From: a virus
Direction: 5' to 3' (one strand)
UHGV virus genome: UHGV-0204464
Length of the DNA stretch: 42,624 nucleotides
Shown here in pieces: positions 1 through 42,603 of the stretch (position 1 is its first letter; each line of letters begins with the position of its first letter). Made by a program: the position numbers and the translations under genes. A model generated the notes under the pieces. That model was given only the letters and a program-made list of their open reading frames with translations. It was not told the origin of the DNA and searched no databases.

Positions 1-546
1 ATGTTAAGTGAAGATATTAGAGATGTAGTTGGTTATGAGGGGCTTTATGCGGTAACTCGTGATGGTAGAGTTTACTCTCACTCAAGGATAATAAATACAT
101 GCCATGGGGCTACTCGATTAATGAAGGGTAGATGGCTGAAGCCAGCAAAGGATGGGGGCGGATATCTATTTGTTGGTCTCTGTAAGGATGGAGAGGTTAA
201 ACCAAAAAAAATACATCGAATTGTTGCTGAGGCATTTATTGAAAACAAAGAATCTAAACCATTCATCAACCATATAGATAATAATAATCAAAATAATAAT
301 GTAGAAAATCTTGAATGGTGTACGCAACATGAAAACATGCAGCATTGCTCTAGAAGCGGTAGGGTGAAAATACCTCATTATGTGGGTTCTGAACATCCAT
401 CGTCCAAATTAAATGAAGATATAGTTCTGGTCATAAAAAATGATTTGATTACGCCAATTAGCGAGTTAGCTGCAAGATATAATGTGACTGTTCAGGCCAT
501 ACACGCCATTAAAAAAGGGAAGACATGGAGGCATGTGAATGGCTGA
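1..546 (+). CDS. HNH homing endonuclease (NUMOD4-like N-terminus, HNH core, C-terminal HTH-like tail)
   Basis: 181-aa ORF; motifs [16 protein letters not shown] and HINHIDNN...[10 protein letters not shown]; AAGGAG at 42614-42619 sits 5 nt upstream of the ATG at base 1 if the window is circular; AT-rich, low-complexity Asn run. Confidence 0.7.
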
Positions 547-9749: not shown

Positions 9750-9790
9750 CTACCTGCACGAAAAGTGTAGGTCAATAACCAACGCAACGA

Positions 9791-9813
9791 CCCAGCTTCG
9801 GCTGGGTTTTTTT
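9791..9813 (+). terminator. Rho-independent terminator after ant
   Basis: CCCAGC-TTCG-GCTGGG hairpin followed by TTTTTTT. Confidence 0.7.
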
Positions 9814-9871: not shown

Positions 9872-12817
9872 ATGAGAGACATTACAGCCAATGTGATCGT
9901 ATCGATGCCTTCGCAACTCTTCACTATGGCGCGTTCTTTTAAAGCCGTAGCTAATGGCAAAATTTATATCGGTAAAATTGACACAGATCCTGTAAATCCA
10001 GAAAACCAGATTCAGGTCTATGTGGAGAATGAAGACGGTTCTCACGTTCCTGTTTCGCAACCAATAATCATTAACGCTGCTGGATATCCTGTATATAACG
10101 GACAGATTGCCAAATTCGTTACCGTGCAAGGCCATTCTATGGCTGTTTATGATGCGTATGGTGCGCAGCAGTTCTATTTTCCTAATGTGCTGAAGTATGA
10201 CCCTGATCAGTTACGGCAGCAATTAGAAGACCCAGATGGAGCGAATAAATACCCAAAACTTCAGATAGCAAGATGGAGAGACAGTTATGATGTAAGAGGT
10301 TGGGGGGCTATTGGTGATGGTGTTCATGATGATACATCAGCTCTATCAGAATTACTTTCTGTTGCAACAGGTGGTGAAAAGATAGATGGGCGAGGGCTTA
10401 CTTTTAAAGTATCAACTCTTCCAGATGTCAGTCGATTTAAAAATGCTCGTTTTTTATTTGAGAGAATACCGGGTCAGCCTCTTTTTTATGCTTCTGAAGA
10501 TTTTATCCAGGGAGAGTTATTTAAAATTACAGATACACCGTGGTACAACGCCTGGACGCAGGATAAAACGTTTGTATATGACAATGTCATCTATGCGCCT
10601 TTTATGGCTGGAGACCGCCATGGTGTAAATAACCTCCATGTTGCATGGGTTCGCTCAGGAGATGACGGGAAGACCTGGACAACGCCGGAATGGCTTACAG
10701 ATTTACATAAAAACTATCCCACAGTTAACTATCACTGCATGAGTATGGGGGTTGTCAGAAATCGCCTTTTTGCTGTAATTGAGACGCGGACCGTGAGAGG
10801 AAATAAACTGCAGGTTGCAGAGTTGTGGGATCGCCCAATGAGTCGCAGCCTTCGCGTTTATGGTGGTATAACGAAAGCAGCAAATCAGCAAGTCGCTTAT
10901 ATTCGCATTACTGATCACGGATTATTTGCTGGTGATTTTGTCAACTTCTCAAACTCTGGTGTTACAGATGTTACCGGGAATATGACGGTGACTACTGTTA
11001 TTGATAAAAATACCTTTACAGTTACGACGCAAAATACCCAGGATGTGGATCAGAATAACGAGGGTAGATACTGGAGTTTTGGTACATCATTTCACTCGTC
11101 ACCATGGAGAAAAACCAGTCTTGGAACTATTCCTTCTTTTGTTGACGGAAGCACTCCTGTTACTGAGATTCACAGTTTTGCGACGATTAGCGATAACAGT
11201 TTTGCTGTTGGCTACCATAATGGTGATATTGGTCCACGCGAGCTTGGGATACTCTATTTCTCTGATGCTTTCGGTTCTCCTGGTAGCTTTGTTCGCAGAC
11301 GCATACCTGCAGAATATGAGGCGAATGCATCTGAGCCATGTGTAAAATATTATGATGGCATTCTGTATCTGACGACCAGGGGGACATTAAGTACTCAACC
11401 CGGTAGTTCATTGCACAGAAGCTCTGATTTAGGTACATCATGGAATTCTCTTCGCTTCCCAAATAATGTTCATCACTCAAACCTTCCTTTTGCCAAAGTT
11501 GGCGATGAGCTGATTATTTTTGGCAGTGAGCGCACATTTGGTGAGTGGGAAGGAGGAGAACCTGATAACCGTTATGCAGGAAATTATCCAAGAACATTTA
11601 TGACCAGAGTTAACGTCAATGAGTGGAGTCTGGATAATGTAGAGTGGGTTAATGTTACTGATCAGATTTATCAGGGCGGAATAGTTAACTCTGCGGTTGG
11701 TGTTGGTTCAGTTTGTATCAAAGACAACTGGCTGTACTACATTTTCGGTGGGGAAGACTTTCTAAACCCATGGAGCATAGGGGATAACAACAGAAAATAT
11801 CCTTATGTTCACGATGGTCACCCGGCTGATTTGTATTGTTTCAGGGTGAAAATTAAACAGGAAGAATTTGTTTCAAGGGATTTTGTCTACGGAGCCACTC
11901 CTAACAGAACGCTTCCTACTTTTATGTCGACGTCAGGCGTGAGGACGGTTCCTGTACCCGTTGATTTCACAGATGATGTTGCCGTCCAGTCACTGACTGT
12001 CCATGCAGGTACATCAGGACAAGTTCGCGCGGAAGTCAAACTTGAGGGTAATTACGCCATTATTGCGAAGAAAGTACCGTCTGATGATGTTACCGCTCAG
12101 AGATTAATCGTTAGCGGCGGTGAAACAACGTCTTCAGCAGATGGTGCAATGATAACGTTGCATGGTTCCAGAAGCAGTACTCCACGTCGCGCGGTATATA
12201 ACGCACTCGAACATCTTTTTGAGAACGGAGATGTTAAACCTTATCTTGATAATGTAAATGCTCTTGGTGGTCCGGGAAACAGGTTCTCGACAGTTTATCT
12301 TGGCTCCAATCCTGTGGTTACCAGTGACGGAACATTAAAGACAGAGCCGGTCTCTCCTGACGAAACATTGCTGGATGCCTGGGGTGACGTCAGGTATATC
12401 GCTTATAAATGGCTGAACGCTGTCGCTATAAAGGGGGAAGAAGGGGCGAGGATACATCATGGTGTAATCGCGCAGCAACTTCGTGATGTTCTTATTTCTC
12501 ACGGACTCATGGAAGAAGAAAGCACAACATGCCGCTATGCGTTTCTTTGCTATGACGATTATCCCGCAGTATATGATGACGTCATTACTGGCCAAAGGGA
12601 AATGCCGCTGACTGATAATGACGGGAGCATCATTGTTGATGAGGATGATAATCCAGTGATGGTAATGGAAGACATCATTGAGCGCGTTGAAATAACGCCA
12701 GCAGGATCTAGATGGGGGGTCAGGCCTGATCTCTTATTCTATATCGAGGCGGCATGGCAGCGCAGAGAAATGGATAAGATAAAAGCTAGGTTAGACTTAA
12801 TAGAAGGGAAGCACTAA
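9872..12817 (+). CDS. Chimeric tailspike: P22-type head-binding N-terminus fused to sialidase/endosialidase-like domain with C-terminal autochaperone-like segment
   Basis: 981 aa; first ~115 aa ([45 protein letters not shown]) match the P22 gp9 N-terminus; Asp-box motifs SGDDGKTW and SSDLGTSW; C-terminal HHGVIAQQL region resembles endosialidase/T5 pb1-type intramolecular chaperone domains. Confidence 0.8.
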
Positions 12818-27659: not shown

Positions 27660-27732
27660 CCATCTACATCACTGAGCTAATAACAGGCCTGCAGGTAATC
27701 GCAGGCCTTTTTATTTGGGGGAGAGGGAAGTC

Positions 27733-29890: not shown

Positions 29891-30030
29891 ACAAAGCATT
29901 CGAACGATATATGCGCCAGCGTTATGGCAATCGCTACGATCTGACCCGCGATACTGGCGGTTTCTACTGCCGTGAGGTTGTGAAACGAATGTTTGAAGTG
30001 TGGTGTCATTGCAAAGGATGGGAGATCTGA
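29887..30030 (+). CDS. Hypothetical small protein (47 aa)
   Basis: ATG overlaps rusA stop; stop adjoins candidate Q start; not in the supplied track. Confidence 0.3.
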   Translation: MNKAFERYMRQRYGNRYDLTRDTGGFYCREVVKRMFEVWCHCKGWEI

Positions 30031-30644
30031 TGCGGTTAACTCCAGTATTCAGCATGGTTAACTTCATTAATGACGCGCACTTTCGCCGCGTATGGAGACA
30101 CCCGAAGAAAACCATCAACTCTAGCCAGAAAGCATGGGTTCATTACATGTTACAGGTATGGGGCAAGGTTAATGCCGGAGATTGCTCTCCAGGTGGTGCA
30201 ATTAACGTTATCGGTCGTCTGATGATTCGCAGTCAGTGGAGCGATGACAAGGCTAAGCAGATAGAGTCTGTCGTCATGCGCCTGTACGAAGAAGATGGGC
30301 TGCGCGGAGATGTGCTATACAAGAAAGCTCGCGAACTGGTCATTCCTCAATCATCGTTTAGCCACATCATCACTCTCGCCAAAGAATCAGATGATGCGGC
30401 TTTCGTTGAACGTGTGATGGTCAAGACTTTTCACCGTGAAAGCCCCGTCCGCGATGTAGCTATTAAGCGATATTGCAATCGCAATTGCACGCAAGATATA
30501 GCCAGGATGATTTCTTATATAACAGGTGCTGATATTCAATATTGTCGTAAGCGAGTGGTGTGGTGTGAGAAAGTGCTGGAGTCAGAAATGTTTTATGCAA
30601 TGAAACGAGAATTGGAGAAAGAATTTCCATTGATAGCGGCCTGA
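30030..30644 (+). CDS. Putative late-gene antiterminator (Q position)
   Basis: ORF between rusA and the PR'/tR'/lysis region; start ambiguous (30000 or 30030); no zinc-finger motif like lambda Q recognised. Confidence 0.5.
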   Translation: MRLTPVFSMVNFINDAHFRRVWRHPKKTINSSQKAWVHYMLQVWGKVNAGDCSPGGAINVIGRLMIRSQWSDDKAKQIESVVMRLYEEDGLRGDVLYKKARELVIPQSSFSHIITLAKESDDAAFVERVMVKTFHRESPVRDVAIKRYCNRNCTQDIARMISYITGADIQYCRKRVVWCEKVLESEMFYAMKRELEKEFPLIAA

Positions 30645-30790: not shown

Positions 30791-30802
30791 GATTAGGTAA
30801 GA

Positions 30803-30835
30803 GCCTCGGCATAAACGTCGGGGCTTTTTTGTTTG
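30803..30835 (+). terminator. tR'-like rho-independent terminator
   Basis: GCCTCGGC-ATAAAC-GTCGGGGC hairpin followed by TTTTTTGTTTG. Confidence 0.55.
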
Positions 30836-31119
30836 CACAACAGGTAAGTGCATTTGTAGAGTTCGACTCTCTACCGTGGGCTTTTTCCCGCGATGCGAGC
30901 CATAAGTGCTCTTTCCGTTGTGCTGAATTAAGCGAATGCCGGAAGCAGAACCGGATCACCAAATGCGTACAGGCGTCATCGCCGCCCAGCAACAGCACAA
31001 CCCAAACTGAGCCGTAGCCACTGGCTATCCTGAACTCATCAGTGATAGTTACGCTGCGGCCTTCTTTCCCCCTTCCCAATATAAGAACTACGCAATCCGT
31101 TACTGGCGGAGGCGTTGCT

Positions 31120-31335
31120 ATGAAATCAATGGACAAAATCTCAACTGGCATTGCCTACGGAACATCCGCTGGTAGTGCGGGATACTGGTTTTTGCAGTGG
31201 TTGGATCAGGTCAGTCCATCACAGTGGGCTGCGATTGGAGTGCTTGGAAGCCTTGTGTTGGGCTTTCTCACCTATCTGACAAATCTGTACTTCAAAATCA
31301 GAGAAGACAGAAGAAAGGCTGCGAGAGGTGAATAA
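31120..31335 (+). CDS. Class II holin / pinholin (phage 21 S21-like) with dual start MKSM
   Basis: [71 protein letters not shown] matches S21 from memory; two TM segments. Confidence 0.8.
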
Positions 31336-32577: not shown

Positions 32578-32986
32578 TCATTACAAAGCCCATCAATGGG
32601 TGGGCTTGATAATGAAACCGGAATTTATTCTGGGCAACCAGTTACGGCAGTACCGCGAAACAACCCAAGCCAGTAAGTGGGGAAATAACACTGGCAGCCA
32701 CTGAAAGATGAACCTCCTGCCTTATGGCAAAAAAGATTCTTTGTGGTGGCGGACTGATGGAAAGACATCCGCTGAATCGATAACGAACAAGTGGAAGATG
32801 TTGCGATGGTTTCCGTAAACAAAGACCAGAAGGAAGGCGTTGAATATATCACTGGTGCTGATGGTGTGAAAAGGCCAATGGCTTATTACAAAGCGGCTGA
32901 AGAGAGGGCAAGAATGGAAAATCCCCCTAAATGCGGATCATTTTTCGACATACTGGACCTTCAATGGAAGTTGTGAACAACTAACA

Positions 32987-33010
32987 GGTCGCCCAGGCGG
33001 CCTTTTTTAT
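32987..33010 (+). terminator. Candidate rho-independent terminator
   Basis: GGTCGCC-CAGG-CGGCC hairpin (one G-U pair) followed by TTTTTTATT. Confidence 0.45.
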
Positions 33011-33539: not shown

Positions 33540-33602
33540 AATGACAATTAAGTGAGATGAATATGGCAGCACTCAACATGCTGCCTTTTATCGTTGATTA
33601 GT

Positions 33603-39237: not shown

Positions 39238-40503
39238 ATGGCTAACCAATTAGTAAAAGACCTTGAAATCATGTTCGAAAACTACGTTGAAGGCTTTGAG
39301 GCCGCCTGCGTAGTTTCCCGTAACGCTAAAAAATTCCGTCCCGGTGATACAGCAATGCAGCGAGCAGGTGATGTTCTGTATCGTCCGCAGCATTACCACA
39401 TGAACATTGAGGAGGGCTTGGACCTCAGCGAAAAAACATCAACAGCACTGGTTCAGCGCCTTGTTCCTTCTGTGTTCAAGGAGCCGAAAAACATTCTGTA
39501 CACTCTGGATGCGCGTGAAATGCGTGACCCTGAACATAAAACTGAAGCTGGTCGAGCCGCAGGTATGCGCCTTGCTGCACAGATTGACTCTGACCTGATT
39601 TCCATGGTCACGCAGCGTGCTACTAACGTGGTCGCAGTTCCTGACTCAGCAACTGGCTCGCGTGGCCTTGCCTTGTGGAATGGTGCGGCAGATATTGATG
39701 CCACCATGACGGCGATTGGTGTGCCGCAGGGTATCAACCGTCGCTCTTTCTGGAACCCCTTCAACTACAAAGACCTTGCTGGCGAGCTTGGTCACCGTGC
39801 CTACGCTCAGGGCGCAACCATGACAGCATACGAAAAAGCGCAAATCCCTCCGGTTGCTTCCTTCGATAGCTACAAGACCGATATTTCCGGTCGTGTTCCG
39901 GAGGGTAAGACTGTAGAAAATGGCATTAAGCTGACTGAAGAACCTAAGCACAAGGTTGAAGCGAAAGATGTTAATGGTATGCCTGTTGATAACCGACAGG
40001 GGACAATTAAGGTATCTGCTGCGGGTTTGCAGGTTGGCGATGCGTTTACCATCGCAGGTGTGAATTCCGTACACCAGATCACCAAAGATACCACCGGGCA
40101 ACCGCAGGTATTCCGCGTTCTGGCAGTAGACACAGCAGGAACCACCGTAACAATCTCTCCGAAAATTCTGCCGCCTAACAACACGGATACCGCCAGCCGT
40201 CCATATGCAAACGTTGATGCTAATGCGGCAAATAATGCAGTAATCACCATTCTCAACAAAAAAGCCGCACCGGCTAACCTGTTCTGGGCTGATGGTTCTG
40301 TTGAGCTGATGTACGGCAAACTGGCGTTCCCGACTGGTCAGGGTCCACAGGTAATGACTGCAACCACCGAGCAGGGCGCTACGCTGATCATGTCTTACGC
40401 CTTCGACCACATCAAAGGCGTAACCACTGCGCGTTTCACCACTCTGTACGGTTGCTCTGTACTTGTTCCTGAATATACGGGCATCGTTATTGCCGGGCAG
40501 TAA
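39238..40503 (+). CDS. Major coat protein (P22 gp5-like)
   Basis: 421 aa; position and size; strong RBS region. Confidence 0.8.
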   Translation: MANQLVKDLEIMFENYVEGFEAACVVSRNAKKFRPGDTAMQRAGDVLYRPQHYHMNIEEGLDLSEKTSTALVQRLVPSVFKEPKNILYTLDAREMRDPEHKTEAGRAAGMRLAAQIDSDLISMVTQRATNVVAVPDSATGSRGLALWNGAADIDATMTAIGVPQGINRRSFWNPFNYKDLAGELGHRAYAQGATMTAYEKAQIPPVASFDSYKTDISGRVPEGKTVENGIKLTEEPKHKVEAKDVNGMPVDNRQGTIKVSAAGLQVGDAFTIAGVNSVHQITKDTTGQPQVFRVLAVDTAGTTVTISPKILPPNNTDTASRPYANVDANAANNAVITILNKKAAPANLFWADGSVELMYGKLAFPTGQGPQVMTATTEQGATLIMSYAFDHIKGVTTARFTTLYGCSVLVPEYTGIVIAGQ

Positions 40504-40510
40504 TTTTATT

Positions 40511-40531
40511 GGGGCTTCGGCCCCATTTTTA
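40511..40531 (+). terminator. Hairpin terminator/attenuator after coat gene
   Basis: GGGGCTTCGGCCCC perfect hairpin followed by ATTTTTA. Confidence 0.5.
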
Positions 40532-40544
40532 TTGGGAGAAGACA

Positions 40545-40733
40545 ATGGCACGAACAATGCTCTATAAGCCTGGCAACATGATCACCTGTGGTCAGTTTGC
40601 TGTCGATTACATCATCGTTGATGACGAAGAAGTTAAATCTCACCTGAAAAAAGGCTGGGTAAAAACTCCTGAAGAAACCGCAACGAAGCAAAAAGTGGCT
40701 AAGGCGGAAGAAGATGGCGAAAACGAAGGGTGA
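40545..40733 (+). CDS. Hypothetical small protein
   Basis: 62 aa from ATG with GGAGA RBS; overlaps start of next gene. Confidence 0.4.
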   Translation: MARTMLYKPGNMITCGQFAVDYIIVDDEEVKSHLKKGWVKTPEETATKQKVAKAEEDGENEG

Positions 40734-41175
40734 TCTCGTTCTAAAGGCTTTACGAAAAGCCGGGCTGTATTCCAATGCCACGTTGACAGATGCTGACCCT
40801 CAGGCAATTGAAGATGCCATTAATGACCTCGAAGACATGATGGCAGCATGGCAGGCTAAAGGTATCGAGCTTGGATATCAGTTTGCTGATACAGAAAACG
40901 GCATCATGCCGTTACCTGACGATGATTCAGGTATCCCTGCATGGGCAAATGATGGCGTCGCTTTGAAACTCGCTGTGCAAGTGTGCATGGATAACGTCAT
41001 TCAGCCGTCAGACGCTCTCCTTACCGCTGCTGACAGTGCATATCAAACAATCTGTATCGCTTTAACCAAAATACCACCACTTGAGCGACGAAATGACATG
41101 CCTCGCGGGGCGGGGTTAAAAAGCGCGTTTACGTGGAATCGGTTTTACATCGAGAAAGATGATCCGAGTACGTGA
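40714..41175 (+). CDS. Head-to-tail adaptor, P22 gp4-like
   Basis: 153-aa ORF in the gp4 position. Confidence 0.55.
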   Translation: MAKTKGDLVLKALRKAGLYSNATLTDADPQAIEDAINDLEDMMAAWQAKGIELGYQFADTENGIMPLPDDDSGIPAWANDGVALKLAVQVCMDNVIQPSDALLTAADSAYQTICIALTKIPPLERRNDMPRGAGLKSAFTWNRFYIEKDDPST

Positions 41176-41184
41176 GGTGAATAA

Positions 41185-42603
41185 ATGCCGATTCAGCAAC
41201 TTCCGCTTATGAAAGGTGTCGGCAAAGACTTTCGAAACGCCGACTATATCGACTATCTGCCAGTGAATATGCTGGCTACGCCCAAAGAAATACTCAACAG
41301 CAGCGGATATCTTCGCTCATTCCCGGGCATTGCCAAACGTTCTGATGTGAACGGCGTATCGCGGGGCGTCGAGTACAACATGGCGCAGAATGCTGTTTAT
41401 CGCGTATGTGGTGGTAAGCTGTACAAAGGAGAAAGTGAAGTCGGTGACGTCGCCGGAAGTGGTCGCGTATCAATGGCGCATGGTCGAACATCACAGGCGG
41501 TAGGCGTTAATGGTCAACTGGTCGAATACCGCTATGATGGCACGGTTAAAACCGTCTCAAACTGGCCTACAGACAGCGGATTCACGCAGTATGAGTTAGG
41601 CTCAGTCCGCGACATTACGCGCTTGCGTGGGCGTTATGCGTGGTCAAAAGACGGCACTGATTCATGGTTTATCACTGACCCTGAAGACGAATCGCATCCT
41701 GACCGTTACAGCGCACAATATCGCGCAGAATCTCAGCCGGACGGCATCATCGGCATCGGAACATGGCGAGACTTCATCGTCTGCTTTGGCTCATCGACGA
41801 TTGAATATTTCTCCCTGACGGGCGCAACCACTGTTGGTGCCGCTTTGTATGTCGCCCAGCCATCGTTGATGGTGCAAAAAGGAATCGCCGGAACCTACTG
41901 CAAAACGCCGTTTGCTGATTCGTATGCGTTCATCAGCAATCCGGCAACAGGTGCGCCGTCTGTGTACATCATCGGCTCCGGTCAGGTGTCACCAATCGCC
42001 AGCGCGAGCATTGAGAAAATCCTCCGCTCCTACACTGCTGATGAACTGGCTGATGGCGTGATGGAGTCTCTGCGCTTTGATGCTCATGAGTTGCTGATTA
42101 TCCACCTTCCGCGCCATGTTCTCGTGTACGACGCATCTTCAAGCGCCAATGGTCCGCAATGGTGTGTGCTGAAAACAGGCTTGTATGACGATGTGTACCG
42201 CGCTATCGACTTCATTTACGAAGGCAATCAGATAACGTGCGGAGATAAGCTGGAATCGGTTATCGGCAAATTGCAGTTCGATATCAGCAGCCAGTATGGG
42301 CTACAGCAAGAACATATTTTATTTTCACCATTAATAAAGGCAGATAATGTCATTATTAATGACCTTGAATTAGAAACATCAGGCGGCGTGTGTGATAGAA
42401 TAGATAAAATATTTATATCAGCAACAACAGATGGAATAAATTACGGCAGGGAACAAATGGTCGTATTGCAATCTCCATTTGTATATGACAATCGAGTCTT
42501 ATGGCGCAGGATTGGAAGAGTTAGACGTCTCATCGGTTTTAAATTCAGAGTTATTGCAAAAGGCCCGGTTACATTATCCGGACTGTCTATTCGTACAACA
42601 TAA
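41185..42603 (+). CDS. Head completion / tail hub protein, P22 gp10-like
   Basis: 472 aa (same length as P22 gp10); synteny; 3' ~300 nt compositionally distinct (AT-rich). Confidence 0.65.
   Translation: MPIQQLPLMKGVGKDFRNADYIDYLPVNMLATPKEILNSSGYLRSFPGIAKRSDVNGVSRGVEYNMAQNAVYRVCGGKLYKGESEVGDVAGSGRVSMAHGRTSQAVGVNGQLVEYRYDGTVKTVSNWPTDSGFTQYELGSVRDITRLRGRYAWSKDGTDSWFITDPEDESHPDRYSAQYRAESQPDGIIGIGTWRDFIVCFGSSTIEYFSLTGATTVGAALYVAQPSLMVQKGIAGTYCKTPFADSYAFISNPATGAPSVYIIGSGQVSPIASASIEKILRSYTADELADGVMESLRFDAHELLIIHLPRHVLVYDASSSANGPQWCVLKTGLYDDVYRAIDFIYEGNQITCGDKLESVIGKLQFDISSQYGLQQEHILFSPLIKADNVIINDLELETSGGVCDRIDKIFISATTDGINYGREQMVVLQSPFVYDNRVLWRRIGRVRRLIGFKFRVIAKGPVTLSGLSIRTT

Follow-up and report, generated by a model that had tools for sequence, protein, structure and literature searches.

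What does a P22-like phage place between its coat gene and the gene for the gp4-type head-to-tail adaptor, and how might the sequences there shape the expression of the two? In the viral genome UHGV-0204464 (a stretch of 42,624 nt that was analyzed as a whole and is called the window below), this junction holds a short hairpin and a small ORF (Table 1). The original prediction had read the hairpin as an attenuator that tunes very high coat expression against lower expression of downstream genes. The junction is 98% identical to that of CUS-3, Sf101, JEP4, Kapi1, and further Lederbergvirus-type phages. The window belongs to the P22-like phages of the CUS-3/Sf101 type and also carries genes for scaffold, portal, terminase, and a P21-type holin. 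Its tailspike (9872-12817, plus strand), a K1-specific endosialidase, has a head-binding domain of the P22 type and a C-terminal intramolecular chaperone domain, which fits the expectation for a CUS-3-like K1 phage. With moderate confidence, we propose that the hairpin would act as a constitutive, leaky terminator ("t-coat") in a Q-antiterminated late operon and that it is followed by a real 62-aa gene that may be translationally coupled to gp4.

Table 1. Features of the coat-gp4 junction and of the head of the late operon (positions in the window)
Feature	Position	Strand	Evidence
Q-like late antiterminator gene	30000..30644	+	phrog_753 anti-termination protein Q-like, E 8.5e-67
tR'-like terminator at the head of the late operon, after the Q-like gene and before the holin gene	30799..30828	+	12-bp stem and T-run
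Holin gene	31042-31335		
Coat (major capsid) protein gene, 421 aa	39238..40503	+	PF11651 P22_CoatProtein, E 8e-72; phrog_283 major head protein
"t-coat" stem-loop TGGGGC-TTCG-GCCCCA	40510..40525	+	Sequence, terminator scans, folding energy, equivalents in relatives
T-run TTTTTATT (U-tract of intrinsic terminator), directly 3' of the stem	40526..40533	+	Sequence
Shine-Dalgarno-like GGGAGAAG for the small ORF	40534..40541	+	Sequence; GGAG/GAGG-type sites before ATG in the other lineages inspected
62-aa gene, P22 orf69 / epsilon34 gene 6 family	40545..40733	+	phrog_1175, homologues, dN/dS, AF2 model, hhalign
AAGGCGG, SD-like site for gp4 inside the small ORF	40701..40707	+	Motif conservation; encodes Lys53-Ala54
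Overlap of the small ORF 3' end with the gp4 start, 20 nt	40714..40733	+	
gp4-type head-to-tail adaptor gene, 153 aa	40714..41175	+	PF11650 P22_Tail-4, E 7e-39; phrog_637 head-tail adaptor Ad3

The perfect hairpin GGGGCTTCGGCCCC that had been predicted behind the coat stop codon (TAA, 40501-40503) is indeed present and occupies exactly positions 40511-40524, with a flanking T:A pair that extends the stem-loop to 40510-40525 so that it begins 6 nt after the stop. Its stem is perfect and comprises 6 bp, 5 of them G:C, beneath a UUCG tetraloop, and the hairpin alone has a folding energy of -11.2 kcal/mol. Together with the T-run, this is the anatomy of an intrinsic terminator, i.e., a G+C-rich stem-loop (of the class with ca. 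5-12 bp) with a short loop and a U-tract immediately 3' of it. The minus strand reads AATAAAAT after the stem, which makes the element unidirectional, and we rejected a bidirectional terminator because this strand has no T-run. A stringent scan of both strands of the 42.6-kb window (perfect stems of 5 bp or more, 4 or more of them G:C, followed by 8 nt with 6 or more T) gave 12 raw matches at 8 distinct sites, while 30 Markov-1 simulations of the same scan averaged 0.43 and never exceeded 3. Only three of the sites lie on the plus strand, at 9790, at 27685, and at the post-coat hairpin, and the last is also reported by a built-in terminator scanner. The site at 9790-9807 (ACCCAGC-TTCG-GCTGGGT followed by TTTTTTAT) is a strong terminator-like element after an antirepressor-like gene and just before the tailspike gene.

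Both the MFE and the centroid fold of the 71 nt around the hairpin (40490-40560) consist of the terminator hairpin plus weak A:U extensions (z = -1.3), with no sign of a larger or alternative fold or of antiterminator pairing in this region, and an Rfam scan of 39900-41300 at E values up to 1 gave no match. The element therefore resembles classical attenuators such as the trp/his leaders or riboswitch-terminators in being a terminator hairpin inside an operon and before genes that still need expression, but it differs from them in lacking an alternative antiterminator pairing, an upstream leader peptide, and an Rfam match; moreover, any read-through would be constitutive or Q-dependent instead of signal-dependent. 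What has held up of the predicted attenuator is the terminator anatomy, the location at the boundary between a high-copy coat protein and low-copy head-completion proteins, and the conservation of this position, while neither an antiterminator fold nor an Rfam relative was found. The term is acceptable loosely, for a dosage step-down, and not in its regulatory sense. We read the element as constitutive, a 3' hairpin that would terminate partially or conditionally, and not as a regulated attenuator.

We compared the junction across 19 individually chosen lineages that include four CUS-3-type variants (window/Sf101, L015, L017-L019), P22, epsilon34, Sf6/HK620, NM-3, APSE-3, Sodalis phiSG1, Louie, Proteus Brookers, C130_2, Klebsiella IME279, sortsyn, the Manatee Spring phage, Ralstonia RSK1, and Pseudomonas PfAn1. 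All 19 have a G:C-rich hairpin after the stop codon of the upstream gene and before the small-ORF SD, with stem sequences as different as GGGGC, GGGAGC, GGGCGC (with a G:U pair), GGGGGCC, GGGGAGCC, GGCCAAG, GGGAGGG, and GGGCCGCCC. In 18 of these lineages, T makes up 5 to 8 of the 8 nt behind the last G:C pair, and the exception is phiSG1, a degenerate prophage that has lost the small ORF as well. There (L007, 1191-1486), the hairpin is kept with a weak T-run (TTTCACGT), no orf69-type small ORF is present, and the adaptor gene is preceded by ca. 290 nt that look non-coding or degenerate, which is consistent with prophage decay. Where an extra gene follows the coat gene, as with ORF5 of RSK1 or an ORF labelled "tail fiber" in the Manatee phage, the hairpin stands just before the small ORF, and the Manatee phage has hairpins in both places, i.e., after coat and before the small ORF. 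On the sense strand of each 3-8 kb locus, the post-coat hairpin is essentially the sole good terminator-like site. Between the window and L017-L019, the flanking genes are saturated with synonymous changes (dS above 1) and the intergenic flanks have been replaced, and the GGGGC/GCCCC stem is still present.

Counts of paired positions in this comparison are circular since the hairpins were picked as hairpins, and the independent evidence is their position, their uniqueness, and the T-run. Hairpins with unusual loop lengths fell out of register in a MAFFT alignment, so pairs were counted anchored at each loop and are descriptive only, and those of IME279 and sortsyn, whose stems run into the T-run, were missed by a greedy hairpin scan but are seen with RNAfold. 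A G:C-rich hairpin in the same place in 19 lineages, with differing stems and in 18 cases a T-run behind it, has the appearance of an intrinsic terminator maintained by selection. Alternatively, the hairpin could be a functionless by-product of a recombination hotspot or module boundary between head and head-completion genes, and a mosaic junction does lie nearby, where the identity of the window to the E. coli prophage L015 shifts from 50-80% to ca. 100% (ca. 40600-40640). This junction is located ca. 80-120 nt downstream of the hairpin and not at it, however, and structure and T-run are kept with differing stems in lineages that share no detectable DNA identity at this place, which leaves us with hardly any belief in a functionless hairpin.

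Both features of the junction are already annotated in the model relatives P22, Sf6, and HK620, so that this is not a new kind of system. The P22 record (BK000583) lists a "stem_loop" right after gene 5, noted as [quoted passage not shown], and then "orf69: unknown", which overlaps gene 4. Sf6 (AF547987) has a "terminator ... t coat" followed by gene 6, and HK620 (NC_002730) a [quoted passage not shown] followed by hkbT. As in the window, these elements start 4-7 nt after the coat stop, combine a GGGGC...GCCCC stem with a T-run, and are followed by a small ORF that overlaps the gp4 homologue. Unlike in these relatives, the coat gene of the window is of the CUS-3 type and the flanks are different, and the loop is TTCG instead of TGCG (P22) or TTAC (Sf6). 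We know of no measured termination efficiency for the Sf6 "t coat", the HK620 "tGP5", or the P22 stem_loop. The publication on Sf101 has nothing specific on the coat/small-ORF junction, while Zaworski et al. discuss a post-coat terminator in phage L.

A further parallel is the terminator right after the major capsid gene of LUZ100, described as "similar to T7" (PMC10134795). Like T7 T-phi and the LUZ100 element, the hairpin in the window follows the most highly expressed structural gene, and essential genes downstream of it need read-through. However, the elements of T7 and LUZ100 act on a phage-encoded single-subunit RNA polymerase and are paired with a local promoter, whereas the window would use host RNA polymerase under Q-type antitermination and no local promoter was found.

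According to the literature, P22 transcribes its late operon from one promoter (PMC8022706), with Q antitermination as the switch (PMC2629481). In the window, the Q-like gene and then the tR'-like terminator upstream of the lysis genes form the lambdoid late-operon layout; a PDB sequence search with the Q-like protein found no match. The genes for gp4, gp10, the needle, the ejection proteins, and the tailspike are all downstream of the post-coat hairpin, and no sigma-70-like promoter was detectable by a promoter scan of the plus strand from the hairpin to gp4. Given a Q-like antiterminator in the late operon and no recognizable promoter for the head-completion and tail genes downstream, the terminator must be leaky and read through most of the time. 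The late operon contains at least three other sense-strand terminators (30799, 32986, 33565), so that, with the Q-like antiterminator, most late-transcribing polymerases are expected to be resistant to termination. Two of these (32986-33003 and 33565-33585, plus strand) are terminator-like hairpins between the lysis genes and the terminase genes. The Q proteins of lambda and phage 21 load onto RNA polymerase, which then suppresses the action of terminator hairpins. The downstream step-down for genuine late transcripts could therefore be near zero; the stem is also short, with 5 G:C pairs.

If Q-modified polymerase read through completely, the hairpin might be a purely post-transcriptional stabilizer that bars 3'-5' exonucleases after endonucleolytic cleavage further downstream and thereby prolongs the life of the scaffold-coat mRNA. 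The presence of the Q-like antiterminator and of the other terminators that must be read through too would agree with such a role, just like the wording of the P22 record on HK97 and lambda and the UUCG-capped G:C stem, which is very stable for its size. Yet a stabilizer needs no U-tract, and a T-run follows the stem in nearly all lineages. The persistence of this tract, which a block to exonucleases would not need, suggests that termination itself is under selection, and we regard stabilization as the only role of the hairpin as unlikely. Another possibility, explicitly one of two proposed in PMC8022706, is an insulator that works against unmodified polymerase only and keeps spurious or prophage-state transcription, started without Q at internal or cryptic promoters, out of the head-completion, ejection, and tail genes while genuine late transcription is unaffected. 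An element of such canonical anatomy should work fully on unmodified RNA polymerase, and BTP1 has internal transcription start sites in its capsid cluster. In the window, though, the plus strand of the coat gene has no strong promoter-like sites (with a single 9/12 match at 40127-40154), and insulation leaves the precise and universal placement right after the coat (or a decoration-like) gene unexplained. We are therefore rather doubtful that insulation is all that the hairpin does.

In the reading that we favor, with a leaky t-coat terminator, this factor-independent element would mark the border between the procapsid genes (scaffold and coat) and the genes for head completion and tail. Polymerase without Q modification would be stopped fully there and Q-modified polymerase at most partly, and terminated or processed coat mRNA would be left with a stable, UUCG-capped protective hairpin at its 3' end. 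Termination and 3' protection together would favor coat mRNA over the mRNA of the low-copy proteins encoded downstream. Translation would restart right after the U-tract at the dedicated SD of the 62-aa gene, and ribosomes that finish the small ORF may be passed on to the adaptor gene by translational coupling.

The small ORF itself had been predicted to have 62 aa and a 3' end that overlaps the gp4-like gene, and the overlap was confirmed and amounts to 20 nt, with the stop codon (TGA) at 40731-40733. Its protein matches the phrog_1175 profile over residues 2-56 (E 9.2e-29), into which P22 orf69 also falls, and its N-terminus additionally matches phrog_3769 (E 9e-6), while Pfam gave no match for the 62-aa protein and hence no WDGH domain (PF25311). 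Profile searches found 436 homologue clusters at 90% identity, all of them named "hypothetical", and 664 homologue representatives at 50% identity among 1.84 billion proteins. In comparison with three relatives, dN/dS of the non-overlapping part is 0.21, 0.27, and 0.30, compared to 0.05-0.13 for the coat gene and 0.04-0.17 for gp4. On these comparisons, the small ORF is a real gene under purifying selection. The original prediction had named conservation among P22-like genomes as a test of this ORF, and conserved it is. A 74-aa version started at a TTG codon (40509-40733) that occurs in one database entry (P0029) is an artefact that would translate the hairpin itself, and an antisense ORF of 91 aa (40506-40781) was rejected as nothing supporting it was found.

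In an AlphaFold2 model of the protein (mean pLDDT 75), a beta-hairpin (residues 3-26) and a helix (27-35) are followed by the invariant Gly37-Trp38 and another helix, and the remainder is disordered, so that an N-terminal beta-beta-alpha "GW" mini-domain of ca. residues 3-45 precedes a disordered, charged tail. Foldseek searches with this model found no match with E <1 in the PDB and only uncharacterized phage proteins in BFVD that are members of the same family, and a PDB sequence search with the family profile returned only noise (E ca. 1). The family shares this N-terminal mini-domain, a C-terminal tail, and the overlap with gene 4, as seen in P22 orf69, epsilon34 gene 6, and ST64T-L orf186 (phrog_1175, phrog_3769). 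The epsilon34 gp6 protein (186 aa; equivalent to orf186 of ST64T/L) has the same N-terminal 46 residues (hhalign 98%) and the same tail but an inserted WDGH domain (PF25311). The 62-aa protein of the window is the shortest form of the family and has neither this central domain of the 186-aa epsilon34/L form nor the Pro-Glu/Lys-Pro linker of the 70-78-aa forms. In the long forms (epsilon34, L021 348-908; P0157), the WDGH domain is inserted between the GW mini-domain and the conserved tail, and a literature search for this domain found nothing.

Sf6 gene 6, HK620 hkbT, and the small ORF of APSE are similar in having 61-63 aa, their own SD after the terminator, and an overlap of 20-26 nt with the adaptor gene, but they differ in belonging to another PHROG (phrog_3251). 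The similarity of phrog_3251 to the orf69 family is marginal (hhalign probability 19.7%, E 0.0012, 27 columns), though in the same register and with Gly-Phe in place of Gly-Trp, and these ORFs are either positional analogues or very remote homologues. Two further homologues of the small ORF are unannotated. In Louie (L008, PQ850616), an ORF of 82 aa at 1263-1511 ends in ...DEPDNEG, and the start annotated for the adaptor gene (1402) probably lies too far upstream. In the Manatee Spring phage (L013, MW202475), the homologue begins at 1322 after the second hairpin and overlaps the adaptor start.

In the lineages that have it, among them RSK1, PfAn1, and Manatee, the orf69-family ORF immediately precedes the gp4-type adaptor gene, also where an extra gene stands between this ORF and coat. 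The two overlap by 17-26 nt in other lineages or abut each other with a spacing of +1 to -2 nt. The SD-like AAGGCGG stands 6 nt before the gp4 ATG and is kept in the window, L015, L017, L018, P22, epsilon34, and Sf6, with AAGGTGG in Brookers. Lys53 and Ala54, which it encodes, are the sole invariant or near-invariant residues of the small-ORF tail in the family alignment, and the TGA of the small ORF sits within the conserved Thr-Lys-Gly-Asp/Glu codons of gp4. As the gp4 SD and these TKGD codons explain the residues of the tail and the position of the stop, conservation of the tail must at least in part reflect gp4 translation signals. The geometry of the junction would fit translational coupling from the small ORF to gp4.

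It might then be asked whether the small ORF is a translated leader only, selected to deliver ribosomes to the gp4 start or to unmask it while its peptide has no function. Besides the tail, whose only invariant residues are accounted for by signals of gp4, this would be in line with a central part that is highly variable (62 to 186 aa in total) and with the Sf6-type phages, whose peptide appears to be a different one yet agrees in length, position, and overlap. It would also be in line with the P22 homologue, reported as non-essential in PMC2629481, which cites Eppler et al. 1991. A functionless peptide is difficult to reconcile, however, with an N-terminal stretch of 45 residues that is conserved from Escherichia phages to those of Ralstonia and Pseudomonas with an invariant Gly-Trp, with dN/dS values of 0.2-0.3 outside the overlap, with a confident fold prediction, and with the several hundred representatives of the family. 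We consequently see little chance that the ORF is a leader and nothing else, and return to a real gene that may be coupled to gp4.

The records of CUS-3 and Sf101 call the 62-aa ORF hypothetical, and RefSeq (NC_027398) labels the protein "virion structural protein" without stated evidence. The P22 and L virion proteins that PMC8022706 names do not include the orf69-family protein. With low confidence, we suggest that the small protein is a dispensable accessory factor that acts with the adaptor in head completion. Profile positions ca. 17-41 ("...V-x-x-x-E-L-x-x-Y-L-x-x-G-W...") recur in several long proteins with about 4-16 copies overall, including 5-8 tandem copies in GIY-YIG/NUMOD3 homing endonucleases (P0183, P0221) and 6-16 copies in secreted Firmicute proteins with Cu_amine_oxidN1, DUF5780, or trypsin-like domains (P0195, P0252, P0254, P0255). 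These repeat proteins reach whole-protein E values of 1e-9 to 1e-11 against the full library, with just 4-18 bits for single copies, and no Pfam model covers the repeats. This distribution suggests that the GW part may be a generic small binding module. A bolder and improbable idea is that the orf69/gene 6 protein is an overlooked dedicated partner of the gp4-type adaptor, e.g., a transient chaperone or head-completion factor, that is built from this beta-beta-alpha module of roughly 30-45 residues, shared with homing endonucleases and secreted Firmicute proteins. If true, it would add a new widespread binding module and an unrecognized step to the classic P22 assembly pathway. In a distant family member (P0236, residues 57-101), the central motif GPTIAEFVAAGYRAENYPPEGYA is 67-72% identical to hypothetical proteins of the otherwise unrelated phages Pseudomonas Aurca01, Sinorhizobium PBC5, and Achromobacter Mano, which suggests that post-capsid small proteins may have been assembled from shuffled mini-modules.

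For annotation, these results mean that the hairpin should carry the label of a post-coat intrinsic terminator and the 62-aa ORF should be assigned to the orf69/gene 6 family, with its start at the ATG at 40545 and not at the TTG at 40509. The mosaic recombination junction relative to L015 falls inside the small ORF, with 50-80% identity over a stretch that begins at the end of the scaffold gene, takes in coat and the hairpin, and reaches ca. 20 codons into the small ORF, and with ca. 100% identity from ca. 40640 through gp4 and gp10. At the other end of the window, an HNH homing-endonuclease ORF (1-546, plus strand; NUMOD4 and HNH_3, phrog_59) stands directly before the tail-needle gene (539-1240). 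In CUS-3, Huey, HK620, and other relatives, the megablast alignments start at 526-538 and leave bases 1-537 unmatched. If the window is circularly continuous with gp10 (end at 42603), this ORF would be an endonuclease gene inserted into the late operon between gp10 and the needle gene.
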